Virus record (IMG/VR): IMGVR_UViG_3300035492_000236
DNA from: a virus
Taxonomy: Duplodnaviria > Caudoviricetes
Length of the DNA stretch: 64,000 bases
Strand: one strand, 5' to 3'
Shown: positions 4,333-64,000 of the stretch, piece after piece
Numbering within the stretch: the stretch's first letter is position 1
Layout of the letters: each line of letters starts with the position of its first letter
The notes under the pieces: model-generated
Database searches by the model: none
What the model saw: the letters and a program-made list of their open reading frames with translations, nothing else
Told to the model about the DNA's origin: nothing
Program-made: the position numbers and the translations under genes

Positions 4333-4345
4333 GATAATATATATC
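4333..4345 (-). promoter_or_regulatory. Candidate early (virion-RNAP) promoter GATATATATTATC
   Basis: One of six copies of a GATATATT(T/A)TATC-like motif, each upstream of a minus-strand gene; resembles the phiKZ early consensus TATATTAC. Confidence 0.55.
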
Positions 4346-4367
4346 TGAAGATTTTTTTATACGGCAC

Positions 4368-38851: not shown

Positions 38852-38864
38852 GATAAAATATATC
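38852..38864 (-). promoter_or_regulatory. Candidate early promoter GATATATTTTATC
   Basis: 33 nt upstream of the nvRNAP beta subunit start; identical to the copy at 59724-59736. Confidence 0.6.
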
Positions 38865-38878
38865 CCACTTTTATTGGA

Positions 38879-40545: not shown

Positions 40546-42108
40546 TTAACGACGGCGCCGGGACGAAGACGGCAGATCCAAGTCCAGCAGGTCGAGGCCG
40601 CTGTTACGGCGGCGGTTGGTGTCTTCTACTTTACCGTCACGAATGCGACTGGTGGTATCAATACGCCCCTTCCCACCGACGAAATCATCGATGGCTTCAT
40701 CTACTTTCTTCCGCAGGTCGACGTAGCGCTCAGCGTTGTCGTCGATGAGGCTTTTGTTGCGCGTCACTACTGGAGTCAGCATGGCGTCGGCGAATGACGG
40801 GAATACGTAAGGAACCGTGGGGTTGTCGTCGATGGAAATCTCCACGCGGGTGAAACCACCCTCCTCGGAACTCACCGACAGATCCACGTCGAAGTAGCCA
40901 TTATTACTGATGACGTTGAACACCTCGCGAATTACCCGACCTTTGAAGGTGTCAATGACTGAGATGTCATCGAAGTCTTCACCGATATAACTGGCAGAGT
41001 CCTCCAGAATGAATTGCGGTTCACGGTCGTATGTCCGCAGGTTGTTGATTCGGAACTGCACGAAGCTGAACAGACACCCTAGCATGATGATCGGAATAGC
41101 GTGACAGACTTGGGCCGCTGCCATGGTTTCCGGACTGGCCCCATACCACACTTCTGACTCAAACGAGAATATGTTGTGGGCGATGGGGGCAATCTTGGTC
41201 ACCTCATCCAAATCCTGCAAGGACCGACGGTCTGTGAAAGGTACCAGGTCACGGTACTCGAAGAAGTTATCCTCCGCGTAGTTACTCCGTGAAGCAATGG
41301 CTTTCAGGAACAGGTTACTATCCACACGTTGCGGTCGCAGGATGTCCGCCGCTTCACTTTCCCGTGACATGTCCATGATGTCGTTGGAGTAGGTTCTGAG
41401 GTTACCGAGACCCTGGCGGTCGGCCGCCACCACCTGTGCCAAGTAGCGGTTGCTGTCGTTAGAATCGCGGCGGTTCATCTCCACGCCATACTGAAAGGTA
41501 TTGCGCAGGTCAATACTGTCATCGTGCCGGCCGGTTTCTTTGTGGGTGTCTACGGTATTAAACAAGTCGTAAGGACGCATCAGGTATTCGGAACCGCCAG
41601 ACCTGCCAGTGATGTCGATGTCACCGAGCATGGTTTGTTGGGAGTCCAACACCTTGCTGGAGATATAGGTACGACCGCGGCGGTCCTTCTTCTCGATATC
41701 CCGAATAAGCACCACGCTGTTAACGTACATCTCCAAGTCAGGCGCTACGGTGTTTTCGTGCGACAAATCCACACGGTCCGTGTAACCGACCACGAACGCG
41801 CGGGTAGCAGAGTTACGGTGGCGGGCGAAGCCTTCGATTTCCACTTCCGCGATAAACCGGTAGCGATTCTCACGCCACGCCCGTCGACCAGTGCGGCCAG
41901 CAATGCCCACTTCTTCGGCTTCACTGGACAGTCGCAGTGCTTCAGAGGCAGTGCCAATAAACAGGTCAGGTGATAGGTTGCCATGGTTACTGCGAACCAG
42001 CGATTCGATCGACTGCAACACATCACCCCCAACGTTAAACTCGAAGGGGTGACGGTACTGCTCTTCCAGGTCAGCCACTTCGATCAGGGTCAGTTTAGTC
42101 AGTCTCAT
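40546..42108 (-). CDS. picA: Probable phage nuclear import factor PicA/Imp1 (phiKZ gp69-like)
   Basis: 520 aa; position directly downstream of the gp68-like RNAP subunit is conserved in Chimalliviridae. Assigned mainly on synteny and size. Confidence 0.65.
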   Translation of the reverse strand: MRLTKLTLIEVADLEEQYRHPFEFNVGGDVLQSIESLVRSNHGNLSPDLFIGTASEALRLSSEAEEVGIAGRTGRRAWRENRYRFIAEVEIEGFARHRNSATRAFVVGYTDRVDLSHENTVAPDLEMYVNSVVLIRDIEKKDRRGRTYISSKVLDSQQTMLGDIDITGRSGGSEYLMRPYDLFNTVDTHKETGRHDDSIDLRNTFQYGVEMNRRDSNDSNRYLAQVVAADRQGLGNLRTYSNDIMDMSRESEAADILRPQRVDSNLFLKAIASRSNYAEDNFFEYRDLVPFTDRRSLQDLDEVTKIAPIAHNIFSFESEVWYGASPETMAAAQVCHAIPIIMLGCLFSFVQFRINNLRTYDREPQFILEDSASYIGEDFDDISVIDTFKGRVIREVFNVISNNGYFDVDLSVSSEEGGFTRVEISIDDNPTVPYVFPSFADAMLTPVVTRNKSLIDDNAERYVDLRKKVDEAIDDFVGGKGRIDTTSRIRDGKVEDTNRRRNSGLDLLDLDLPSSSRRRR

Positions 42109-49866: not shown

Positions 49867-51759
49867 TTACCGACGGTAGCGGGTGTGGACGGAACCACGA
49901 CCACGACCACTGTGGGTACGGCGACGACGGTTGGTCAGGTTGTCAGCCAGACCGTAGTTGGTACCGTGGTAGGAACGACGGCGAGTCCGGCCGTAGGCCA
50001 GGTCAGACGCCGCATCGACTTCCAGATCCAGGTCGGAGCTTTCGACGGCTTCGAACAGATCGGCCAGGAAGGTCGGGTTGAGGTACAGCTTGGTGGCGAA
50101 ACCCTTCAGCACGAATTCACCGTCAGTGACGAACTTGAACAGAGCGTTCAGTTTGGTCATGGCTTCATCGTAGTTGAAGTAACGCTCGTCCACCGCCATG
50201 CAGTCGTACAGGTCGGCTACCAGATCGGGGTAGTTGGTCTTCAGGCGATTCAGGATCGCCAGAGTGTCCATGTCCTCGATCGGACGACGACCTTCGCTGG
50301 TCACGTAGTAACCAGTCGGCACACGCACGGCGCCAGAAATGACGTCGCTGGCTTTCTTGGCTTTGGAGATGGCACTCCACTCGCCATTGGTCAGATCATC
50401 CAGGCTGTTCATCAGGTGCTCGAACGCATCCTGGTCGTTGTCGGCCAGGTCCAGCAGCAGCTTGGAGGTAGTGAAGTTCACACCGCCTTCGCGAATCATG
50501 ACCACGAACTCTACCGGGATACGACCACGGTCGTCGCGGTTGAAGATGTTCTGCAGCCAGGCATCGCCACGCTTCGGATCTTCATCCAGCTCGGCCAGGT
50601 CGTCCGGCAGCTCACCGCGCGGCCATTCCATACCGTAGGCGAAGCCGGAGATGCGACCATTGGCACCATGGAACGCTTGCTCGAACTGACGCATCCACAG
50701 ATCGTTGTCCTTGATGTAGGGCAGTTGGGACAGACCCAGCATCATCCGCTCGAAGTTACCGTCGCTGATGCCCTTGTGAGTGGTGTTCACTTGGGACACG
50801 ATAACTTCAGGTACGAACACACCCATATCGATGTCACGGGGGTCGCGCACTTGGTCCGGGTGGACTTCGTAACCCAGGAAGCGGGCGTTGACGTAACCAT
50901 CCAGGCTAACCAGAGTGGTGCCACCGGAAGAGGCCAGCAGGGTGGACTGCACTTTGTCGCGGAAGGTTTCTTCCACGGCGATTTGGAAATCGGAGCGCAG
51001 CGGCATGCCAGTCAGGTCCAGGGCATTGGGCTTGGGTGAGAACTGGATCTTGCTACGTACCCGAGCATTGCGGCGCAGGCGGTCGGCGCTGAACGGCACG
51101 CTGGCGCCGGAGATCAGGATGTTGGCATCTTCGGCGTCGAACGCCAGGGACTGAACCACCTGCTTGTTGGACACGTCCACTTCGCTGGGAATGATGGTGG
51201 CGTTGGTGAACACGTAATCGCCGTCGGAGGCGGCATTGTCACGCAGCCAGTCTTCGAAACGGGTCACCAGTTCATCATCCACGGAGTCGATGCTGGACAC
51301 GAACCGCAGTACTTCGTCATCACGACGGCTACGGTTACGGTCATGGACTGGGTAAGTCACTACTGGGTTGATCTGACCTTCGAAGATCAGCAGGTGCCAG
51401 TATACGTTGCCTGCGATTTGTTCAGCCATGACCAGGAAACCCTGCTCCTGGTTCATTTCCTTCATCAGCTCACCATCCGGCTCCATCAACTGGCAGGTAG
51501 GCTTGGCGCCCATATCTTCCAGGATTTCACGATAGGTGGACAGGAAGGTACTGGCGCGACCCTGCTCGCCAGTAACCGGGGAGAAAGTCCGGTCAACGGT
51601 CTGGCGGTAGTTGGAACGTTCGCTGCGTTCGGTACGCTCACGACGTTCTTCGCGGTCACCGCGATCGCTGCGCTCACGACGCTCACGACGCTCATCACGC
51701 TGCGCTTCAGCGTTGATGTTTTCTTCGGTGCCGTTGTCTTTGTTAACATGGAATCCCAT
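49867..51759 (-). CDS. chmA: Chimallin, phage nuclear shell protein (phiKZ gp54-like)
   Basis: Start MGFHVNKD (51759, RBS AAGGA) gives 630 aa. Segments GMPLRSDFQI, LDGYVNARF, FVPEVIVSQ, RPIEDMDTL and NPTFLADL resemble chimallin; canonical position just upstream of nvRNAP beta-prime N; very strong codon bias. Confidence 0.88.
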   Translation of the reverse strand: MGFHVNKDNGTEENINAEAQRDERRERRERSDRGDREERRERTERSERSNYRQTVDRTFSPVTGEQGRASTFLSTYREILEDMGAKPTCQLMEPDGELMKEMNQEQGFLVMAEQIAGNVYWHLLIFEGQINPVVTYPVHDRNRSRRDDEVLRFVSSIDSVDDELVTRFEDWLRDNAASDGDYVFTNATIIPSEVDVSNKQVVQSLAFDAEDANILISGASVPFSADRLRRNARVRSKIQFSPKPNALDLTGMPLRSDFQIAVEETFRDKVQSTLLASSGGTTLVSLDGYVNARFLGYEVHPDQVRDPRDIDMGVFVPEVIVSQVNTTHKGISDGNFERMMLGLSQLPYIKDNDLWMRQFEQAFHGANGRISGFAYGMEWPRGELPDDLAELDEDPKRGDAWLQNIFNRDDRGRIPVEFVVMIREGGVNFTTSKLLLDLADNDQDAFEHLMNSLDDLTNGEWSAISKAKKASDVISGAVRVPTGYYVTSEGRRPIEDMDTLAILNRLKTNYPDLVADLYDCMAVDERYFNYDEAMTKLNALFKFVTDGEFVLKGFATKLYLNPTFLADLFEAVESSDLDLEVDAASDLAYGRTRRRSYHGTNYGLADNLTNRRRRTHSGRGRGSVHTRYRR

Positions 51760-51825
51760 ATCTTCTTTCCTTCTTATGTTGGCCAAAATGTTTGTGAGAA
51801 GTTAATTGCTAGCTTAACTCACTCA

Positions 51826-51838
51826 GATGAAATATGCT
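51826..51838 (-). promoter_or_regulatory. Candidate early promoter variant AGCATATTTCATC upstream of chimallin
   Basis: Degenerate copy of the motif, 67 nt upstream of the chmA start. Confidence 0.4.
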
Positions 51839-51867
51839 TAAAATATCTTGGAATCGGGGTACCGCTC

Positions 51868-52932
51868 ATGATTGAATTCGTCAATAAGCAGTTGGCGCTG
51901 TCGCGAGGAAGGGTCACAGACCCCTCCTTCATAAACATAGCACGTGGTGTAAATAAAAACCACCGTCGCATCCGTGCCCAATACCTGAATAGTTCCATGG
52001 CGGTGAAACCAACCCATGTACTACTTAAACTATTGTCTGGTCTAGCCCTGACGGTCAGCATGACGCCCAGAGACATAGAGCTGCGGGCAGAAGCCTTGAC
52101 CAATCAAATAGCGCAGTCATTACGACTAACGTCCCCGGTCAGTCCCGGCGAGGGGAATATCGGCGACTTCATGGATGCGGGACACACATCGGTCTTGCTC
52201 CACAGCGATCGTTTTGATGCTGACATACCATGGTACAATTTAGAGCCTGTGGTGTTCCGTTACCACACCAATACCAACATTAACTATCTATTGGGGTGTG
52301 GTGATGAAGCCAGTTATGCATTTGTTGAAGTTAACGTGCCGATGTTGGCAATGCAGCTATACCATTGGACCCGTTGGCGCAACGGCGCAGACGTGGATGA
52401 AAGCATCCGTCAGTTCATCACCAAGTATCCACTGTTTAATGCAGTCAAGTCTTACATGGATGTCAGTCTGCTGAATAGACACTACTACCAGCTCACAGAC
52501 GCCGCTATCCCCGAAGACCGAAAGACGCCACAATGGCCCTTCATCAGTCATGAGGATGCGGTTGACAAGTCTGCGCTGAAAGTGGTCAACCAACTTCTAA
52601 CGGGCGGTAAGAGCATAGGACAGACCTTGTACTCCACCGCCGGCTTCTTCACGGAGAGTGCGTTGGATCGGTTTCAGCGACCTAGAGTACCGCGCACTAA
52701 CGCAGTGCGTTGGTGGGATTACGCGACCTTGTTACCAATGCTGCACTACGGACTAACCATATCCAGCATGTCTGGCTACAACGTCAATCAGGGCATACTC
52801 AGCAATATGGATCGCGATTTGGTCGCATTCACAAATACACGCACATTGGATAAAGTGCCAAAGCACCTATCTCTCCATATAATGGGTAACTTTATTGAAC
52901 CAACTCGGGAATTGATTGCGCGACTTCGCTAG
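51868..52932 (+). CDS. Conserved phiKZ-like protein, divergent from chimallin (gp52/53-like by synteny)
   Basis: Start reassigned to MIEFVNKQ (51868); the ORF-track extension to 51343 is antisense to chimallin. The 3' end overlaps the polymerase gene convergently by 41 nt. Confidence 0.7.
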   Translation: MIEFVNKQLALSRGRVTDPSFINIARGVNKNHRRIRAQYLNSSMAVKPTHVLLKLLSGLALTVSMTPRDIELRAEALTNQIAQSLRLTSPVSPGEGNIGDFMDAGHTSVLLHSDRFDADIPWYNLEPVVFRYHTNTNINYLLGCGDEASYAFVEVNVPMLAMQLYHWTRWRNGADVDESIRQFITKYPLFNAVKSYMDVSLLNRHYYQLTDAAIPEDRKTPQWPFISHEDAVDKSALKVVNQLLTGGKSIGQTLYSTAGFFTESALDRFQRPRVPRTNAVRWWDYATLLPMLHYGLTISSMSGYNVNQGILSNMDRDLVAFTNTRTLDKVPKHLSLHIMGNFIEPTRELIARLR

Positions 52933-55078
52933 TGGTCTTTGCATTCAGTCCACCGAAGTAATCCGACACCAACAGTGTTCGGTTTTTGTCGATCATGCAG
53001 ATGTTGAAACACTCCAGCACATGGTAGTACGGCTCCACTGATGCGAAGATAATGCGGCGGAAGTCGGCCACATCCAAGATCTCCTTAGGGATTCCTGTGG
53101 CAGACACCACCGCCTCCGGCAACAGTAAGTTGACAAACGTCCGCTTGGGGTACTTAGCTGACCAGGCCTTAATCCGACTTGCCAGCTCCCGGTCTTTCAT
53201 TTCCGCTATCCATTTATTGATGGCGGTCTTGTTCTCCAGGTTCACGGCGATCTTCACCACGTTGTAAGTTGGGTCGCCTGAGGCACCATACTTGGGACCA
53301 AACGTCTCTGCCCACATTTCATGGTAGAAGTAATTGGATGATTCCGGGATGCTGTACGCCTCCTTGTTTTTGACCTGGCCAGTTTTAAGGTATTGGAATC
53401 CACCATCCACCACATTCTGAACGATGTCCAGTTCGATTTGAGCAATTCGTTCCAGATGAGGAATGATGCGGATCTTGTCACCAGCCATGACTTTAGCACA
53501 CATGTCCTGAATGGTTGTGCGAAACTCCTTCATGATGATGTCAGGGATGTTGGAGGTGCGTAGCGCCACCCCCTTAACTTCCAACTCTGGATCTTCACGC
53601 AGCACGCCCTCTTGGGATGTGATCAACGAGAAATAATGCTTGGCTTTATTGGTCAATGCAAAAGCACTGAACTTAAATTCGTTCTTCATGGAGTAACGGT
53701 GGATGTTGGATTCTTCAACCCCCATGTTCGCTGACATCCGTCCCATCATGTGCGCAATGTTCTGGGTAGCGATGTAAATCATGACGTCTGAGACGTCGTC
53801 GGCCGCTTTGCCGGTCATCTCGCCTGTGTGCCATTCGGCCCATTCCTGCACAGTGGCCATGGTTGAGTCAGTATCTGATACCAGACTCACGCGACGAATG
53901 GTATCGGGCAGTCGAGCAATGGACGCCGGCACGTTGCGTGTGGTGAGTATTTCGCGGATCAGTACATCGTACTCGCGGGTAGCGGACACCACCTGATACG
54001 CCGTGGCTAAGAACTTATGATACCCTGCAACGTCCTTTTTCTTTAGCTCTTTACTATTGCCGTAAGGACCCACCACGTCCGCACGCAGCAGACTACACAG
54101 CGCTACTAAGTCGCCATCCAACAACTTCTCAACTTCCTCCGGGGGCACCGTCAAGGTGTCCTGCGGAGTTACCATTTTTGCGATAAAATTCCGCATGACG
54201 CGGTCGTTGAATTTACGCAGATGGTACAGATCGCCAATGTACACAAACGCGGCCCGTTCCAACGGCTCGATTTTCTCCACCAGGTCGCGAATGGTAGCCA
54301 TGGCCTTTCCGTTACGCCAGAACAGTTTGGTTGAGTACCTAATCACCTCCATGGTTTCTTCTACGGATGGGTAATGGAGATCGTATAGGTCCATACACTG
54401 TTTGAATGCCGCGAAATTGGTCAAGTGTAGGGTGGACAGGATATTATTCACTACAATGCCAGGCAGCCAATAATGACGACTGCCAGCCAGGACTTTTTCG
54501 TTGTTGGCGTTACCATAACTGGTGGCAGAGCGACACGTGGAGGTCAGTGATGAGTGGGTGGATTTATTATACAGAATGGTGTAAGGGGACGAGTGGGCAC
54601 CTGACGCTGCATTGTTCAACGTCTTTACTGAGTTCTGTTCGTTCTTTTTGTTGGCAGCCAACACCTCATCGTTATTAGCAATCGCAGTAAACATCTCCTG
54701 TTTTACTGCGGCCCGCTTAGCGATGTTCTCATCAATGAAAATAGACAACACGGACCGTTTTACAGACGGCGGCAGATAAAACGTCAAAGATGGTGAATTG
54801 ATGATGTTCTTATCATGGACAGTGCGCAGTAGGGTGGCCATATCCACCCTGGTGGCGCGGCGGTCTCCGGTCTCCGGGTCGCGCACGTTCACGTTAGCAA
54901 TCGGAGCTTTAAATTCAAACCGACCGCCTTTCTTGAATTCTTTCTTCAACCACTCTCGCACCACCTCCATTGGCTTGCCGGTGGATTTGTGCAGGTAGAT
55001 GGCAGTTTGTTCCATGTACCCATCAATAACGTTAATCTCGCGCTTGTACTCGTTGATTGGACGCAAAAAGGTGGACAT
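52892..55078 (-). CDS. Split family-B DNA polymerase, catalytic C-terminal subunit (phiKZ gp50-like)
   Basis: 728 aa. Motif B EQNSVKTLNNAASG, motif C VSDTDSTM, KAKHYF, EVKGV. No exonuclease or motif A recognised. Confidence 0.88.
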   Translation of the reverse strand: MSTFLRPINEYKREINVIDGYMEQTAIYLHKSTGKPMEVVREWLKKEFKKGGRFEFKAPIANVNVRDPETGDRRATRVDMATLLRTVHDKNIINSPSLTFYLPPSVKRSVLSIFIDENIAKRAAVKQEMFTAIANNDEVLAANKKNEQNSVKTLNNAASGAHSSPYTILYNKSTHSSLTSTCRSATSYGNANNEKVLAGSRHYWLPGIVVNNILSTLHLTNFAAFKQCMDLYDLHYPSVEETMEVIRYSTKLFWRNGKAMATIRDLVEKIEPLERAAFVYIGDLYHLRKFNDRVMRNFIAKMVTPQDTLTVPPEEVEKLLDGDLVALCSLLRADVVGPYGNSKELKKKDVAGYHKFLATAYQVVSATREYDVLIREILTTRNVPASIARLPDTIRRVSLVSDTDSTMATVQEWAEWHTGEMTGKAADDVSDVMIYIATQNIAHMMGRMSANMGVEESNIHRYSMKNEFKFSAFALTNKAKHYFSLITSQEGVLREDPELEVKGVALRTSNIPDIIMKEFRTTIQDMCAKVMAGDKIRIIPHLERIAQIELDIVQNVVDGGFQYLKTGQVKNKEAYSIPESSNYFYHEMWAETFGPKYGASGDPTYNVVKIAVNLENKTAINKWIAEMKDRELASRIKAWSAKYPKRTFVNLLLPEAVVSATGIPKEILDVADFRRIIFASVEPYYHVLECFNICMIDKNRTLLVSDYFGGLNAKTTSEVAQSIPELVQ

Positions 55079-55146
55079 GTTAGATACCTTGTTATTGTGT
55101 TTGTGTCACTGTCATATGAGGTACCTCCACATCATTTTTTACAAGA

Positions 55147-55175
55147 CAAAAAAAAGCCACGGACCCGAAGGTCCG
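55147..55175 (-). terminator. Intrinsic terminator ending the small-gene array
   Basis: Minus strand CGGACC-TTCG-GGTCCG then TGGC and a T8 run. Confidence 0.8.
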
Positions 55176-55180
55176 CGACG

Positions 55181-55585
55181 TTAGATGGTTTCAATGCTGA
55201 AGTCAGTGATACCGCGGCTATTCAGGTCACGAACGATCATCTCAGCGTCAGCACTGGAAGCTTTCGGAATGATGATCCGCAGTCCCTGCTGATCCACCAC
55301 AGTTACTGGTTCAATAATCCACGGCACCCCCACCGCTTTACGTTCCCCGGTGGCTGTCCGCACGATAAGGTAATCGTAATCGGTAGCGTTCTTCGGGGTA
55401 CCGGACGGCAGGGTGCTGTAAATATTGCTATGGATCGCATCTACATCATCGCCAGACATCGCAGCGGCCAGGCTATGAGCAACTACCCCTAGTACTGTAA
55501 CTCGACTGTAAATGTCAGGCAGCAGTTTGGTATGCAACTTAAACGTGACAGTTTGGCCGTTGCGCAATTCATACACGGTTGACAT
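55181..55585 (-). CDS. Conserved small beta-rich protein (phiKZ gp49-like by synteny)
   Basis: 134 aa with YDYLIVR...AVGVPWI; directly upstream of the polymerase as in phiKZ. Confidence 0.65.
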   Translation of the reverse strand: MSTVYELRNGQTVTFKLHTKLLPDIYSRVTVLGVVAHSLAAAMSGDDVDAIHSNIYSTLPSGTPKNATDYDYLIVRTATGERKAVGVPWIIEPVTVVDQQGLRIIIPKASSADAEMIVRDLNSRGITDFSIETI

Positions 55586-56180
55586 TCTTTAACTCCCATA
55601 TGACGATACGTTTGGTCTTTAAATCGACCTCCACATTATCAACGTCCAGATGTCTTGGTAGCCGTGGCAATTGCGACAGGTAATCGAACGACTCCATTGT
55701 TGAAGTGATCATGAAGCCGATGCCGTGTGCAATCGACATTGCCATGTTAACCATTTCATGTCGCCAGCGGCGTTCCCGCCGTGACGCCTCCGGGTCAACG
55801 TCTACAGCCAACTCGATCGATGCTGAATGTCGAAGGTAATTGGTCAACACCACGGCCCAGAATGGGGTGGATTCACACGCCCATTCTTCCACCATGTCCA
55901 TGAACCAGTCGTTCAGGCTGCGATCCTCGTCACTTTCAAAGATGGCCGCCACCATCTCCTCAATATGTCTGTCATCGAAGCTTCGCAGAAACGCATCCTG
56001 CGTGAGTCCTTCGATGTAGTGGCGACAGATCATCTCACACACTGCGCTTTGGTAACACAAGCGAAATGGGATGAGAATCTCTTCGGGTAGTCCGTTGACA
56101 CCAATTTGGTCATCGATCCACTGCCAGCCTGCGCGAATAGTGGCTGCGGTCTCTGACGGTAGGCCTATAATTGACCGCAT
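55569..56180 (-). CDS. Hypothetical protein, array member 9
   Basis: 203 aa, acidic, RBS GGAG; N-terminal strand, helical core, C-terminal beta hairpin. Confidence 0.75.
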   Translation of the reverse strand: MRSIIGLPSETAATIRAGWQWIDDQIGVNGLPEEILIPFRLCYQSAVCEMICRHYIEGLTQDAFLRSFDDRHIEEMVAAIFESDEDRSLNDWFMDMVEEWACESTPFWAVVLTNYLRHSASIELAVDVDPEASRRERRWRHEMVNMAMSIAHGIGFMITSTMESFDYLSQLPRLPRHLDVDNVEVDLKTKRIVIWELKNVNRV

Positions 56181-56189
56181 GGTAATCTC

Positions 56190-56708
56190 CTATCGTAACT
56201 CGATACTCGGTGCATAATGTACTTTGATGGTTTTTCGGCGCAGATTTACTTCTGGGATATCCCTCGAACCAAGAATACGCATGGTCAGACCACGACGGTT
56301 ACGCCGTTGCTCATTGATCAGGGCAAACCAATCATCATTGGATTCCAACCCATACTCTGCCAAGGCATCAATGATGGTCTCGGCCAAGTGGGTGATGATG
56401 ACTTCCATTTCTGCGACCGTGTCAAAAATTGTCGGGAGGTTGTCCGACACCCACTTCACTTGGTCGGTGTCTTCATCAATTTCAATGTTGGCGTCAAAGA
56501 CCAACTCCAAATAATCGCAGACTGCATGGTGGATTTGCTCCCACACTTCCTCATCCCGCCAGGACTGTGTCCATGCGGCAGCAAACACTGCAATTACCAC
56601 TGCCGGGTACAACAAGCTTGGAACATCGAGTACTTTGCTGACAACATCGTCGGCAATGTTCTCAGCCAACTCTATCGACCTCCTGGCCGGAATGATAACG
56701 TTTGACAT
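56190..56708 (-). CDS. Hypothetical protein, array member 8
   Basis: 172 aa, RBS GAGG; same predicted topology. Confidence 0.75.
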   Translation of the reverse strand: MSNVIIPARRSIELAENIADDVVSKVLDVPSLLYPAVVIAVFAAAWTQSWRDEEVWEQIHHAVCDYLELVFDANIEIDEDTDQVKWVSDNLPTIFDTVAEMEVIITHLAETIIDALAEYGLESNDDWFALINEQRRNRRGLTMRILGSRDIPEVNLRRKTIKVHYAPSIELR

Positions 56709-57064
56709 GATGGCCTCGTGCTGATTAAAACCTTGCCTGACGTAACAGACACACTATAGACCATGTTGGTATTTCTGTAACAACCCCATGCAATGTCTGT
56801 CACCTTTTCGTGGAAGTGTTGCTGCAGGCGCTGCATTTCAAGTCGACTGCAGATACCGCCATAATGAATGGCGGCATTCGCATTGACCAGTCCAGCATCG
56901 ATAAGGGCGTAAAGTGTGTCCTCCCCGACACTACACCCTAACGCCCGCTCCATCAGTGCAGTGACGACCAATCGCCGTTCAAACGTGGTCAGTTCACTAC
57001 ACTCAACATGCTTTGCAAACAACTCCACAAAATCAGCGACTGGTGCTACGACTGTCCCAATCAC
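56672..57064 (-). CDS. Hypothetical protein, array member 7
   Basis: 130 aa, overlaps both neighbours. Confidence 0.65.
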   Translation of the reverse strand: MIGTVVAPVADFVELFAKHVECSELTTFERRLVVTALMERALGCSVGEDTLYALIDAGLVNANAAIHYGGICSRLEMQRLQQHFHEKVTDIAWGCYRNTNMVYSVSVTSGKVLISTRPSCQTLSFRPGGR

Positions 57065-57533
57065 AAAATGCCTCCAGGGCGCGGTTGGCCGATTCTATCA
57101 TCAGCCGTTGAATGTGTCGAGGATAATCACTGGCCACCACTACCTCCAACACTAAATGCAGGTGCTCGCGACTCGCACGCGGCCGGAAGCTGTAATTGAC
57201 CAGACGATAACGATTATTAACCCAGCCGTCGATTCGGCTCAATTCCTTAAACATTTTGATCAAGGCATTGACCACGGCCAGTTTCATGTCATGCAGGCCA
57301 GCCTGTGACAGATGATTGGTGATCGACGATTCAGTGCAGAGGTAATCCATGGTGTTGGATATCTTGCCGTAATCAACTGGTCGCTGTTCCGCAATATCTA
57401 CGGTGAGATTGAGGATGCCGTTAAGATCGTCAATCAGTGAGCGCACCAATCCCGCTTCGTCGAAGTTATCAGTCCAAGGCAACATTTCCATGAACAACTC
57501 GTGGAAATTGTGTAACTCTACAATGATTTTCAT
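57033..57533 (-). CDS. Hypothetical protein, array member 6
   Basis: 166 aa, starts right after the upstream stop. Confidence 0.75.
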   Translation of the reverse strand: MKIIVELHNFHELFMEMLPWTDNFDEAGLVRSLIDDLNGILNLTVDIAEQRPVDYGKISNTMDYLCTESSITNHLSQAGLHDMKLAVVNALIKMFKELSRIDGWVNNRYRLVNYSFRPRASREHLHLVLEVVVASDYPRHIQRLMIESANRALEAFCDWDSRSTSR

Positions 57534-57534
57534 A

Positions 57535-57957
57535 TTAACTCCAAGGTTCTACTTTAAGTTTCAGAGTCGATAGGCGATTCCTCACATGGTAATCGACTAC
57601 CTGATGGCGACCGCAGTCAATACTCGACAGCGCGCGGTCAACTGCACTGCTCAACCCAACGAACCGTTCGGACGTCACCACCTCCTCCACCATAGTGGTC
57701 AATTCAAAAATGCCGATGTCTGGGAATTTGGGATATAGTGCCATGTAGATGGCAGTCACCGTATCGTTGGTGTGGCATTCGACATCGCCCGGTAAGAACA
57801 GGCATCCGACTAGCTCATTAAACACCAGCGTTTGTGTTGGGTTAAAAAAGCTATCCTCGGTATCATGTTCGGATTCGGAGCAGATGTGATGTAAGTGCAG
57901 GGCAACGTATTCGGCAATCTCCCAACTCCACCGACGGATGTCTACGGTGATATCCAT
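57535..57957 (-). CDS. Hypothetical protein, array member 5
   Basis: 140 aa. Confidence 0.75.
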   Translation of the reverse strand: MDITVDIRRWSWEIAEYVALHLHHICSESEHDTEDSFFNPTQTLVFNELVGCLFLPGDVECHTNDTVTAIYMALYPKFPDIGIFELTTMVEEVVTSERFVGLSSAVDRALSSIDCGRHQVVDYHVRNRLSTLKLKVEPWS

Positions 57958-57964
57958 ACCACTT

Positions 57965-58336
57965 TCACCCTATTGGGGTGACTTCAATGGTGTAGCTCAC
58001 CGGACCAAGGACAATAGCATCGAGTCTGAGTCGCTGCTTGCCCATTCGCTGTAAGATGCGGGCGGTGTCTTGCAACAGCGTATCAATACCACATTCCATC
58101 ACCAACAAGGTCAGGTCGTGGCCGCTATATCCAGGCGTGATGTCGCAATCATCAAACCAAGCGGCCAATTCCCGCGATGTCTCGGTCAGATCGTTGTGAT
58201 GTGCTAACAGTTGGGTAACCAACTCACGGATCACATCGTCGTTGCCAATAGGTGCGCGAACCAAATTCACCACATCGGTTTCGTTTAACTTATCCAACAA
58301 ATCCGTGTATGTCACGTCTGAGAAAATCCACTTCAT
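57965..58336 (-). CDS. Hypothetical protein, array member 4
   Basis: 123 aa, RBS AGGAG. Confidence 0.75.
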   Translation of the reverse strand: MKWIFSDVTYTDLLDKLNETDVVNLVRAPIGNDDVIRELVTQLLAHHNDLTETSRELAAWFDDCDITPGYSGHDLTLLVMECGIDTLLQDTARILQRMGKQRLRLDAIVLGPVSYTIEVTPIG

Positions 58337-58345
58337 ACTAAGCTC

Positions 58346-58786
58346 CTAGTTACAATACCCACCTAACTGTAGCCGAGGGTAGTGGATAGCATAATCGTCA
58401 ATCAGTCTAAACTCGGTACGTTTCAATGAACGCGAATAAAACTGATGCACCGCAGACACCACCTGATGGCGATGTCTGCGCACAACCCATCGGTCGGTTG
58501 GATTATCCGGGACGATGCGGGACACGATTAGTTCAGCAGCGCGCGTGTCATATCCGCCGAAGGTAGCTTCTTTGGTGCAAGCACTTAGGAAGAGCTCGAC
58601 TAAATCCACTACCGTTTCTACCACGTCCGTAAAGGTTGACGTGTGGCCCAATTCTTCCAACTCAGCCAGCACTCGGTCCACGGACCACGTTAAATCAATG
58701 ATGACCTTACGGTATCGCCTCTCCGTCGGGAAGAACATAAGGTCCATTCCAACGTTCGTCTCCGTAGGTCTGTCGAAATACGACAT
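58346..58786 (-). CDS. Hypothetical protein, array member 3
   Basis: 146 aa; the true start may be a later Met because the ORF overlaps the upstream gene by 80 nt. Confidence 0.7.
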   Translation of the reverse strand: MSYFDRPTETNVGMDLMFFPTERRYRKVIIDLTWSVDRVLAELEELGHTSTFTDVVETVVDLVELFLSACTKEATFGGYDTRAAELIVSRIVPDNPTDRWVVRRHRHQVVSAVHQFYSRSLKRTEFRLIDDYAIHYPRLQLGGYCN

Positions 58787-59324
58787 GTCGTAAATCCTCG
58801 CCGACTGTCACCGTCAACCGATCACCTTTCAGTGAGGCATCCACAGTCCGCCATTCATCGATGTGTCTGAAGAACGTTCGGCAGTAGTGACGAATTAGGC
58901 CATCGAACCACCCCGTCAGTACCTCATTGAGGGGCTGATGTCGCATCATCACCAATGCCAGCTCTGCTTCGTTACGCCACTGCGGCTCTTCCCGTATTAA
59001 CAACCTTGCCCCATAGTCAAACAGACAGTTGTCGTAATATGCAGGCACTGATTTAAAATGACGGACCATGGCGCCGCAGAGCAGGTTTTGGGATAGCTGC
59101 TCGGTTAACATGGCAACGATTTCCTCAACCCGCTCGGGATTACCGCGTTGACGCACTGTCTGTATTGCTTCGGACAATCGATACACACGGTCTTCACTGT
59201 CCGTGATCGCATGTACGTTGATAATGTCGGCATGCTCTATAATGAATGCCGCCACCTGTTCACGCACCCACCGAAAGTCATACACCAGCCGTTGCTGTCG
59301 CAACTCCGTTTGTTTATTGTTCAC
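58707..59324 (-). CDS. Hypothetical protein, array member 2
   Basis: 205 aa, RBS GAGG. Confidence 0.75.
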   Translation of the reverse strand: MNNKQTELRQQRLVYDFRWVREQVAAFIIEHADIINVHAITDSEDRVYRLSEAIQTVRQRGNPERVEEIVAMLTEQLSQNLLCGAMVRHFKSVPAYYDNCLFDYGARLLIREEPQWRNEAELALVMMRHQPLNEVLTGWFDGLIRHYCRTFFRHIDEWRTVDASLKGDRLTVTVGEDLRHVVFRQTYGDERWNGPYVLPDGEAIP

Positions 59325-59343
59325 ATGACACCTCTTACGATCG

Positions 59344-59691
59344 TCACTCGTACGTCCCCTTAATTACGAACCGGTTACCGCTACGTCGATACCTGATCTC
59401 ATCCACTTGGTAATCAACGGCATTGATGAATGTGCGATTCAACGGTCGGAAGTATGACCGACGTTGCGTCACTTCATTGACTGCCGACCGCACGTACGGT
59501 CTAAGTAGCCCGTTGTGTGCGAAGTAACCGTAGCCAACCACCGCTTCTATCTGGCTGATCAGCAACTCATACATGACCTGGATTGCGAACTCGTTGGTTT
59601 CGACGTACTCGGAATAGTTCTTAAATTGGCGTATGAAGGAAGTGCGAAATGGCTGAATGTCTAATGACATAATCAATACCGTAGGTCGCAT
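59344..59691 (-). CDS. Hypothetical protein, array member 1
   Basis: Start reassigned to MRPTVLIM (59691), RBS GGAG, 33 nt downstream of the promoter motif. Confidence 0.7.
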   Translation of the reverse strand: MRPTVLIMSLDIQPFRTSFIRQFKNYSEYVETNEFAIQVMYELLISQIEAVVGYGYFAHNGLLRPYVRSAVNEVTQRRSYFRPLNRTFINAVDYQVDEIRYRRSGNRFVIKGTYE

Positions 59692-59723
59692 CTTAACCGT
59701 CTCCAAAAAGCTCGTGTCATCCT

Positions 59724-59736
59724 GATAAAATATATC
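59724..59736 (-). promoter_or_regulatory. Candidate early promoter GATATATTTTATC heading the small-gene array
   Basis: Identical to the copy upstream of the RNAP beta gene, with the same 33-nt spacing. Confidence 0.6.
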
Positions 59737-59851
59737 TCTGTGACATTTCATTCTAAAGGGCAGAGCCCTATAGGAATACCGCTCAGGTTAAAAATAAGCG
59801 ACTTTACGGCGATGTTATGTCTACCCTGTACTTACCCATTAGGAGGTCCCT

Positions 59852-60664
59852 ATGGATGCTGTCACGCACGCCATCAACGATGTTAAATACGAGATCCCGG
59901 AAGAGATCTTGAACGATGCTTTTATCGATCGCCGCTCACGTTACATGCGGCGCCCCCAAAGCCTCGATGCTGCTATCCGCGAAACCATCATCGATCGCCG
60001 TATCAAACCCGACTTGGATAACCTGGGTGGAGTGATGGTGGTCATCGACCTTAACGGAGTGCCGTATGAAAAGCTGTCCAATTACGAGCGTATCTACACT
60101 ATCCCACGCTCCAAGACCATGGGTCGTACCATCTCCCAAGTGCTGCGGGTCGGCATGAACGTCACGTCCAACTACCAGGAGCGGATACCTGGTCAGTCGT
60201 CCGCCAGTTTCCAAATATCGCCGGTAGAACGATCGATCCAGTCGGTGGTGGCGTCCCACAACCCCATTCCGAACATCTCGAACGCGGAAGTGGAGATGTT
60301 GGGTGACAATACCTTCAAGATCAACGACTATCAAAACTTTACCACGGACATCTCCCTGGAATGTCTGATCAGCTACACCAAGGAACTGTCTGAGCTTAAA
60401 CGGCCTTACTTCCGTGACTTCTCTCAGTTGGTGGTATTGGCAGTTAAAGCGTACATCTACAAAGAGCTGTCATTGAAGCTGGACCGCACACGGCTGGAAG
60501 GTGGTCGTGACTTCGGTCGTTACAAAGAAATCGTGGATGAGTACCGTGATGCCAACCAGATGTACAACGACTTGTTAGATGAAAAATGGGCCAAGCTACT
60601 ATTACTCAACGATCAGAACCGTAAACAGAAACACATCATCCGCGCGGGCAGTATTCGTTACTAA
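59852..60664 (+). CDS. Conserved phiKZ-like protein, possibly neck/head-completion
   Basis: 270 aa, RBS AGGAGG, TATG (late-promoter-like) at 59816-59819. The C-terminal LAVKAYIY...EIVDEY...W is loosely like T4 gp13-type neck proteins (inference). Confidence 0.55.
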   Translation: MDAVTHAINDVKYEIPEEILNDAFIDRRSRYMRRPQSLDAAIRETIIDRRIKPDLDNLGGVMVVIDLNGVPYEKLSNYERIYTIPRSKTMGRTISQVLRVGMNVTSNYQERIPGQSSASFQISPVERSIQSVVASHNPIPNISNAEVEMLGDNTFKINDYQNFTTDISLECLISYTKELSELKRPYFRDFSQLVVLAVKAYIYKELSLKLDRTRLEGGRDFGRYKEIVDEYRDANQMYNDLLDEKWAKLLLLNDQNRKQKHIIRAGSIRY

Positions 60665-61703: not shown

Positions 61704-62128
61704 TAATGCACTCTCCCATTATCCCATTTCAGCTGATTGGCTTTCTCCAACCCCAACAATCGCTCTACCATGAAGTCAAACAGATTCAACAAGGGTCCGG
61801 CGTTTTGCGTTGGTGCCACCAGCGTGGTTTCAAAATGATGCTTGATCAAGTACGTCATCACGTCAACCACAGGTATGTCTGACAGTACCTGGTGCTCTGA
61901 GATCCGCAGTAATTCCGCCCAGCTAATGGCCGCAGGCGCTATCGTCAGCGTAATACTAGGTCGGCGGATCCGCACCGGCTTGGCTTCGTTGTGTACTTCT
62001 TCTACGGCTAACTCACGTAGCAATTCAGTCACCCGATCATCGCCGATCAAATGGTTCTTACCATAATCTCCCAGCAAGTAGCCCGACATGAACTCGCTGG
62101 GGGTTAACGTCATCATCTGTGTTTTCAT
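61703..62128 (-). CDS. Hypothetical protein
   Basis: 141 aa, ATGA-coupled to the HAD gene. Confidence 0.7.
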   Translation of the reverse strand: MKTQMMTLTPSEFMSGYLLGDYGKNHLIGDDRVTELLRELAVEEVHNEAKPVRIRRPSITLTIAPAAISWAELLRISEHQVLSDIPVVDVMTYLIKHHFETTLVAPTQNAGPLLNLFDFMVERLLGLEKANQLKWDNGRVH

Positions 62129-62697
62129 TCAGTATTCCTAATTCCCGTTCTGCGCAGGTCGTTTACGCGCCGCAACAGCGCCATACGCTCATGATCGATA
62201 GGCAGACTGGCAATCTCACGGGCCCGTTTAAAGTCGGCGTCTGTGAGCCCTACGGTGGGTTGTACGTGATGCGGCATCATCCCATACTCACGGTAGCTGC
62301 TCCACTGATCATCTAGCACCAGCAACCGCTCAGGCAGCATGATGGTGATGTAATCACCCAAAGCTCGCACTCGTCCCTCACCGCCGCCAGTGTCTTTTAC
62401 TTTATCCAGGATCCGCACACCCAAGAACTCCGCAATCCGCCACACGTCATGCCGTGACCCAAACCAGCTGGAGATCCCCACCACATCCCCATCCAGTTCC
62501 TCCACCAGCACCTGGAACTGTTTCAAGGTGTTGGTGTTCACAAAGTTACCTCGATCAATGAACCGGTACGGCAACTGTGGGTCATTGTGGATGTCTTGAT
62601 ACGTCAGTCCCTGCTCTGTCACTAACTCATACAGCCGAGCATTGTCCGCTCCACTGTTCAATACCCCGTCTATGTCTAATGCAATCAACAGCCGCAT
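62125..62697 (-). CDS. HAD-superfamily phosphatase (HAD_SAK_2 / RNA-repair type)
   Basis: 190 aa. Motif I ALDIDGVLNS, motif II ISSW, motif IV LVLDD, HVQPTVGLT. Confidence 0.8.
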   Translation of the reverse strand: MRLLIALDIDGVLNSGADNARLYELVTEQGLTYQDIHNDPQLPYRFIDRGNFVNTNTLKQFQVLVEELDGDVVGISSWFGSRHDVWRIAEFLGVRILDKVKDTGGGEGRVRALGDYITIMLPERLLVLDDQWSSYREYGMMPHHVQPTVGLTDADFKRAREIASLPIDHERMALLRRVNDLRRTGIRNTE

Positions 62698-62776
62698 GTC
62701 TCACTCCCTCTCAACCTCAAGCATAGGATGCCGCGCCGGCGGCCCCTCATACACACATCTAAGGCTGATTTTCAAA

Positions 62777-63696
62777 TGTCTAAAGGCAGGTCTTAAGGTG
62801 TCTATTGGTTTTCTTAGTTCTTACAAAAGTTAGTGATTTTATCTAAACTAAAACCTTTAAACTAACTTACTCCTTAAAGCTTCTCTAAGGACTACTGAAG
62901 TAACCTTCAATTACCCTTAACTATAGTTAACCTCTTCAAGGTAACCTTGAGATACTTACGGATACTTAATCCTACCCTTATTCCATAAGCTATCTAATCA
63001 TACAACTACTCAACTTGTACTTCGTACTTACTAACTTTACTTATCTTTTTTCTTTTTTCTTTATGTTTCTATATAGTTAATATAGATTATATTTATATAA
63101 TTTATATTATTCATTTCTTTTCTTTATCTTATTTTATTTATATTATCTATATAACTTATATACTTAATATATTTATTATATTTATATATATTATCTATTT
63201 ATTCTCTTTTATTCTTCTCTTTTGTTCTCTCGATGTTCCCCTACCCCCCCTTTCCCCCCCTTCCCCAACCGGGAAGGAGTCACATCTCATACATATATAT
63301 TACGGGTGTAAAAAATAACAGATTGTTAAAAAGCCTTCAAAACCACCCCAAAAACCAAACCAAACTACCACCCAACTTGGCGGATAGTTCCTGTTCTATA
63401 TGCACACAACCATCCAAGGTACGCTAGTTAGATAGGCAGTCAACCGTCGTTACCTAGACTGAACCGATGTAAGCCACCTATAGCGATGCTAGAAAGGGAT
63501 CCAGCTGATAGCGACCGAATGCCCACCAACCTACAATAACACCTCACAGAACACGCTAGAACGCGTTCTGTGGCCTTCCTGGGGGTTTGGTTGCATCAAC
63601 GTGGGCCGTGGCGCGGCTGGCTCCCGTTCTGCCTTAAGACTAACATTAAACAAAGCTTCTTAAAGTGTCTAAAGGCAGGTCTTAAGGTGTCTATTG
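62777..63696. repeat. Perfect 31-bp direct repeat (62777-62807 and 63666-63696)
   Basis: TGTCTAAAGGCAGGTCTTAAGGTGTCTATTG occurs twice, 889 nt apart. Confidence 0.92.
63040..63230. other. Extremely AT-rich, T-skewed non-coding tract (candidate unwinding element)
   Basis: Almost only A/T with TTTA/TATA repeats, in a genome whose coding regions are roughly half GC or more. Confidence 0.7.
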
Positions 63697-63952
63697 TTTA
63701 AACTTTAAACTTTCTAAATATAAAAACTTATAAGGCTATAATAACTCTTATAGAACCAATAAATACAAAAAATAAAACTAAAACTACTTAAAAATACTCT
63801 TAAAATGCTTGTGCTGACGCACCCTTTTCCTCGTCCCTCCGCTTCGCTCTTCTCTTCTCACTCTCACCCCCCTTGGGGGGGGGTCTTCTCTTCCGCTCCG
63901 CGGGTCCCTCCCGCTCGTCCTCTCTCCCCTACCCCCCAATCCCCCCTTCCCC
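63238..63952 (-). repeat. Two conserved G-quadruplex-forming motifs (63238-63266 and 63926-63952)
   Basis: Minus strand GGGG-AA-G7-AAA-G7-TA-GGGG and GGGG-AA-G6-ATT-G6-TA-GGGG. Confidence 0.8.
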
Positions 63953-64000
63953 ATCGAGGGAAGGGAGCATATTTACATAAGTATACAAAGCCTGTAAAAA

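Follow-up and report, generated by a model that had tools for sequence, protein, structure and literature searches.

In IMG/VR virus record IMGVR_UViG_3300035492_000236, from which one stretch of 64,000 nucleotides (nt; hereafter the window) was analysed, nine small genes, m1 to m9, form an array that is the positional counterpart of gp43-gp48 of phage phiKZ, lying between a gp42-like gene on one side and the genes for SH3DP and DNA polymerase on the other. The window derives from an uncultured chimallivirus, i.e. a nucleus-forming jumbo phage, whose nearest cultured relatives are the Vibrio phages pVp-JHP1101 and pVa-21. We interpret the array as an early operon that is conserved yet evolves rapidly, and as an old fixed set of genes rather than a variable panel, as each position has its own size and the order is conserved across relatives.

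In phiKZ, the order runs from gp42 (on the opposite strand) through gp43-gp48 to gp49 (SH3DP) and gp50 (polymerase), and the same plan is found in PhiPA3, Psa21, 201phi2-1, and Phabio. Across the loci compared (48 from viral contigs, eight usable out of nine from metagenomes, one of which duplicates a viral contig, plus annotated phage records), the slot is filled by 7-10 small genes. For instance, pVp-JHP1101 (gp216-224, annotated as hypothetical) and likewise pVa-21 possess nine genes in the same order and with matching sizes. From m1 to m9, the proteins comprise 203, 172, 130, 166, 140, 123, 146, 205, and 135 amino acids (aa) in the window (m9 taken as its long open reading frame, ORF), 188, 245, 137, 166, 146, 123, 153, 228, and 117 in pVp-JHP1101, and 188, 235, 120, 164, 132, 120, 133, 223, and 119 in locus L050. 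However, while the flanks of pVp-JHP1101 are 62-67% identical to those of the window, its array proteins are just 15-37% identical, several of them being beyond BLASTP recognition. Over all positional counterparts, global identity amounts to 13-37% for the array, whereas the polymerase and the gp42-like gene reach 62-67% and SH3DP 40-50%; each array family diverges about threefold faster than the flanking genes. Only m4 and m8 are kept as far as the SPN3US-like phages. Salmonella phage SPN3US (gp250-257) and its Erwinia-phage relatives resemble the window in the slot itself and clearly have the m4 and m8 families in common with it (clusters c2 and c4), but their slot holds eight genes, and no similarity is detectable at the remaining positions.

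The array and SH3DP form one coupled, terminated transcription unit. ORF calling over the window placed the nine co-directional array genes on the minus strand at 55569-59751, where a Shine-Dalgarno-like motif precedes each of them (9/9) and neighbours overlap or lie a few bases apart, in agreement with the coupled minus-strand genes that a first-pass annotation of the same DNA had described. Its further statements that a gp49-like gene closes the unit and that a terminator follows were also borne out. The final gene (55181-55585, minus strand) encodes a 134-aa SH3DP (PF20287, E 6.5e-29, with 100.5 bits at a gathering cut-off of 25; phrog_3235, E 1e-30), and the phiKZ gp49 query matches the same cluster; between it and the polymerase gene lies a strong intrinsic terminator (55146-55179, minus strand) with a 10-pair stem (7 GC), a 4-nt loop, and a T8 tail. 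At the other end, the promoter-like word AGAGATATATTTTATC is located 5' of m9, the first array gene, at 59724-59739 (minus strand). This word occurs three times in the window versus 0.19 copies expected, its core AGATATATTTTATC is kept at the same place in five relatives (pVp-JHP1101 and loci L026, L050, L004, and L008), and the site overlaps a sigma-70-like match at 59757-59729, so that promoter activity is predicted from the sequence. The candidate early promoter proposed at 59724 corresponds to this conserved word, but the word falls inside the long m9 ORF, and m9 therefore most likely starts at 59691. Two more copies of the word, with two and three mismatches, are found at 38852-38867 and 4333-4348; all three copies lie on the minus strand and may constitute a promoter class of this phage.

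Are the nine genes paralogues, as the first-pass annotation had supposed? BLASTP among the array proteins of the window returned no pairs, the best profile match of each protein was its positional counterpart, and in the same profile search no member matched another position. HHalign scores between positions, which had been proposed as a check on this claim, were not above those of array families against control families (Mann-Whitney p = 0.85). Family hidden Markov models (HMMs) did score array proteins of other positions above flanking small proteins at the level of clusters (p 1e-5 to 1e-3), but an equal excess was obtained with shuffled and reversed sequences, and once the shuffled baseline was subtracted it was not significant (p 0.03-0.5). 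The excess is therefore compositional, and beyond composition neither BLASTP, HMM, nor HHalign comparison links the positions. Links of position 2 with 5 and of position 8 with 2 and 4, seen in iterative HMM searches, were gone with clean profiles and were dismissed as drift. One order-dependent hint remains and appears marginal, namely the alignment, at 10.5 bits, of the m8 profile to helix 4 and the hairpin of m4 (E 0.0028 in a comparison with 251 window ORFs). With respect to the terminal motifs, an N-terminal hydrophobic pentad is slightly enriched in the array families over flanking small proteins (p ~0.003), and the excess of C-terminal hairpin or strand propensity is marginal (p = 0.04 and 0.25). 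The acidic core ascribed to every member applies to about half of the proteins, but m9 is basic (isoelectric point, pI, 9.5) and m3 neutral. Judged by sequence, the array comprises nine separate positional families, and a single paralogous family is unproven.

Structural evidence covers two of the nine members, m2 and m4. The AlphaFold2 (AF2) model of m4, built from a 25-sequence alignment, has a predicted local distance difference test (pLDDT) score of 84.6 and a predicted template modelling (pTM) score of 0.80, with strands (E) and helices (H) in the order E2-8, H10-20, H26-48, H55-68, H77-98, E107-119, E122-133, and H139-163. For m2 (10 sequences; pLDDT 85.7, pTM 0.82), the order is E2-7, H9-25, H31-47, H53-73, E75-78, E83-86, H98-119, H125-139, E153-155, and E160-165. 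Hence, m4 has four helices followed by a long hairpin and then a C-terminal helix, and m2 has five helices with a small internal and a short terminal hairpin. The single topology claimed for all members is partly recovered, as both models begin with a strand, continue into a helical core, and have a late hairpin, but the number and order of helices and the place of the hairpin differ.

Searched against BFVD (~351,000 models), m4 retrieved three clear orthologues and then weak matches, mostly to chimallivirus proteins. Four Imp2-family models are among its top 40, each weak (E 0.03-0.23; template modelling score, TM, 0.27-0.38): PhiPA3 044, the named Imp2 homologue, and proteins of SL2 (178 aa), 201phi2-1 (276 aa), and Phabio (287 aa), the latter three being assigned to the Imp2 homologues by equal lengths. 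Further weak m4 matches, to a 165-aa protein of Psa21 (gp040) and a 153-aa protein of Phabio (gp062), fit other array genes. For m2, the best E was not under 0.14, and none of its top 50 was an Imp2-family model. Six weak neighbours are common to the top-50 lists of m2 and m4, and neither list holds the orthologues of the other. PDB-wide structure searches gave sub-threshold matches only, with different neighbours for m2 and m4, and an Atlas shape search with m4 gave TM of 0.39 or less. Type III secretion gatekeepers (CopN, MxiC, InvE, SepL, and BopN) scored below the noise mark for helical proteins and without sequence similarity, and we claim no relationship to them. Solved structures of Imp2, Imp4, or the m4 family were looked for, and none exist.

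What makes this slot of interest is the function of two genes in its phiKZ counterpart. There, orf47 (imp2) is needed for import of Nlp1 and is itself imported through Imp1, and orf48 (imp4) is needed for import of the host topoisomerase TopA (Kokontis et al., 10.1101/2024.03.27.586873); a later preprint terms both Imp2 and Imp4 cargo-specific adaptors. The first-pass annotation was right in placing phiKZ import factors here: both genes lie between gp42 and gp49/gp50, homologues of which flank our array. The window and phiKZ agree in the slot and its orientation and in a run of small co-directional genes; in addition, m8 weakly matches gp43, and the m4 model is weakly Imp2-like. We consider a role at the phage nucleus or in import most likely because imp2 and imp4 lie in the phiKZ block and act via Imp1/PicA, a homologue of which is encoded in the window. 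The array products would thus be early proteins that act in the phage nucleus or at it, some at least as cargo-specific import factors or as PicA-dependent cargo, and their fast divergence would reflect co-evolution with cargo or host partners. Further points in favour are the low identity of the array proteins to their positional counterparts when set beside the flanking genes, the six BFVD neighbours common to m2 and m4, and a phiKZ transposon screen (PMC12676376) in which gp42, gp43, gp47, and gp48 were without insertions, in contrast to gp44, gp45, and gp46. We hold this reading tentatively, at somewhat less than even confidence, with m4 as the best Imp2-like candidate. An import-related role appears plausible by synteny, and an adaptor function is suggested by synteny together with the weak fold matches.

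Several observations weigh against it. Imp2 and Imp4 were reported to be confined to Pseudomonas phiKZ-like phages (10.1101/2024.03.27.586873). In HHalign comparisons, the Imp2 family reached P of 4% or less against all window members and their families, an enlarged m4 profile (64 sequences) reached 0.1% against Imp2, and the best match of the Imp4 family, to m2, reached 5% over 33 columns. The comparison with phiKZ gp43-48 suggested by the first-pass annotation therefore revealed no member with sequence homology to Imp2 or Imp4 (P 5% or less), and the matches to Imp2 models reported above are individually weak. Furthermore, the window has nine genes versus six or seven in phiKZ, which limits a one-to-one correspondence to m8 and perhaps m9. 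Finally, gp44, gp45, and gp46 tolerated insertions at 6-11 sites in the phiKZ transposon screen; three genes of the phiKZ block are dispensable and have no known role, so that membership of the block does not imply an import function. The widely conserved m8 and m4 may correspond to the insertion-free class.

A different account would regard the nine as unrelated early accessory genes of mixed function (host takeover, anti-defence, or accessories of replication, for example) located in a recombination-tolerant slot between core genes, their similar secondary structure being generic for small acidic alpha/beta phage proteins. It agrees with the lack of homology across positions, the compositional origin of the score excess, and terminal motifs that are barely enriched over flanking small proteins, and also with the differing helix numbers and PDB neighbours of m2 and m4, the insertions tolerated by phiKZ gp44-46, and the restriction of m3 to the closest relatives. 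However, order and sizes have been preserved between clades that diverged deeply, a pattern that favours retained functions over a free slot; moreover, two members of the phiKZ block have a defined import role, and the weak BFVD neighbours of m2 and m4 are mostly small chimallivirus proteins. We regard this account as the main rival and as only slightly less likely than the import reading. The operon might instead supply replisome accessory factors that are co-expressed with SH3DP and work with the adjacent polymerase, not in import. SH3DP, with which the array is co-transcribed, is a domain associated with phage DNA polymerases, the unit lies beside the polymerase gene in every relative, and phiKZ Imp4 concerns the import of TopA, a replication-linked cargo. 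Yet Pfam and PHROGs revealed no DNA-binding or replication domain in any member, the terminator parts the unit from the polymerase gene, and the very fast divergence is unlike that of replisome parts, which makes such a role very unlikely.

A further account follows the first-pass annotation in viewing the array as an expanded paralogue family and a repertoire of cargo adaptors; the nine and phiKZ gp43-48 would all be old paralogues with a single fold whose sequences have diverged too far to be recognised. For this speak the strand, helical core, and late hairpin present in both models, the m8 profile alignment on m4, and the tendency of the best local profile matches between families to run from N-terminus to N-terminus or from C-terminus to C-terminus; likewise, m2 and m4 have common BFVD neighbours, and m4 matches members at other positions (Psa21 gp040 and Phabio gp062) as well as Imp2 homologues. 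But profile comparisons equal the controls, the apparent cross-family HMM matches were lost with clean profiles, neither model retrieves the orthologues of the other in BFVD, and the two topologies, which represent only two of nine members, are not identical. We deem this account improbable. A broader version, in which the gp42-to-gp49 slot of all chimalliviruses would hold ancient, fold-sharing, PicA/Imp1-dependent cargo adaptors that diverged past sequence recognition, with m4 and its SPN3US-type relatives as the Imp2 counterparts, seems to us similarly unlikely.

Turning to the individual members, all of which are on the minus strand, we found no Pfam or PHROGs match for any of the nine proteins; comparison of the region's DNA with 50,697 phage records gave no match, and scans of viral and metagenome contigs with single array proteins found nothing. 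The best-conserved member is m4 (57033-57533; 166 aa), whose family is present in at least 28 loci; an exhaustive HMM search recovered only 45 relatives among 1.84 billion protein representatives. The other widely conserved member, m8 (58707-59324; 205 aa, GTG start), belongs to a family with over 30 members that occupy the m8 position. With phmmer, phiKZ gp43 matched the m8-family members of locus L035 (1.5e-5) and pVp-JHP1101 (4e-3), and HHalign of m8 against the gp43 family gave P 26% (E 7.5e-4); the positions agree, the lengths differ (205 versus 357 aa), and m8 is, by these sequence matches, the probable counterpart of phiKZ gp43. A feature search of the ESM Atlas with m8 yielded no usable match.

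The first gene of the operon, m9 (59344-59691), encodes 115 aa from M21, whereas its long ORF to 59751 encodes 135 aa. The start at 59691 is most likely judging from a GGAG upstream of this ATG and from the lengths of its ten positional orthologues (94-119 aa; iterative HMM), those of 113-119 aa fitting the 115-aa start. The m7 gene (58346-58786; 133-146 aa) has an ambiguous start (58786 or 58747) and overlaps the end of m8; its weak HHalign match (P 22%) is to positional counterparts only, at a global identity of 20-25%. The m6 gene (57965-58336; 123 aa, acidic, pI 4.45) is preceded by AGGAG; its counterparts in pVp-JHP1101, L026, and L050 measure 120-124 aa (HHalign P 20%). For m5 (57535-57957; 140 aa, acidic, pI 4.8), no sequence relative was detected, and its counterparts (129-146 aa) are recognised by position only, at 14-15% identity. 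Similarly, the profile search with m3 (56672-57064; 130 aa, GTG start, GGAGG upstream) gave no sequence match to its positional counterparts, which measure 120-137 aa in pVp-JHP1101, L026, and L050 and are absent from L004, L008, and L053-L058. The last two array genes are m2 (56190-56708; 172 aa, acidic, pI 4.5) and m1 (55569-56180; 203 aa, acidic, pI 4.8), the latter adjoining SH3DP and overlapping its start. For m1, a public gene call gives 154 aa, but the alignment of its ten positional orthologues favours the start that yields 203 aa. That public call is 100% identical over 76% of the ORF, and it comes from contigs of up to 385,734 bp, a large size even among jumbo phages. A word-indexed search of 5.8 billion proteins with m1, the m1 family, and the m2 family found no further relatives.

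Upstream, the block is bounded by the divergently oriented gp42-like gene (DUF7484; 59852-60664, plus strand), identified by PF24302 (E 6e-89) and by phmmer with phiKZ gp42 (2.3e-30). The downstream boundary is the divergent family B DNA polymerase (52892-55078, minus strand), a phiKZ gp50 homologue (PF20286, E 2e-254) with 67% identity to the Vibrio phages pVp-JHP1101 and pVa-21 and ~50% to SPN3US-like phages. The PicA/Imp1 homologue, which matches phiKZ gp69 at E 7e-31, is encoded at 40546-42108. A shell-protein gene at 49867-51786 (minus strand), which probably starts at the tenth codon of its ORF, is 42% identical to the 'putative nuclear shell protein' of pVp-JHP1101 and has no significant BLASTP match to phiKZ gp54. 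It is overlapped by a 529-aa plus-strand ORF at 51343-52932, which is probably over-extended; on the plus strand, relatives carry a gene of ~355 aa where phiKZ has gp52 (head protein). Towards the end of the window, at 62000-64000, G+C content falls to 0.44, the GC skew is strongly negative (-0.27), and credible long ORFs are missing. DNA of the window is present in four tar-pit metagenome runs.

Caution is required in reading the apparent family resemblance of the array proteins, which largely reflects amino-acid composition together with secondary structure of a generic kind. To date, Imp2 and Imp4 are known only from Pseudomonas phiKZ-like phages, and in Vibrio-type and SPN3US-type chimalliviruses the same slot is filled by position-conserved, fast-evolving small genes. 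The array thereby offers concrete candidates for import adaptors in phages of other hosts, with pVp-JHP1101, pVa-21, and SPN3US as cultured relatives. If the slot did hold an ancient adaptor family, Imp2-like adaptors would extend beyond Pseudomonas phages, and every phage would have a set of about nine, fixed in position.

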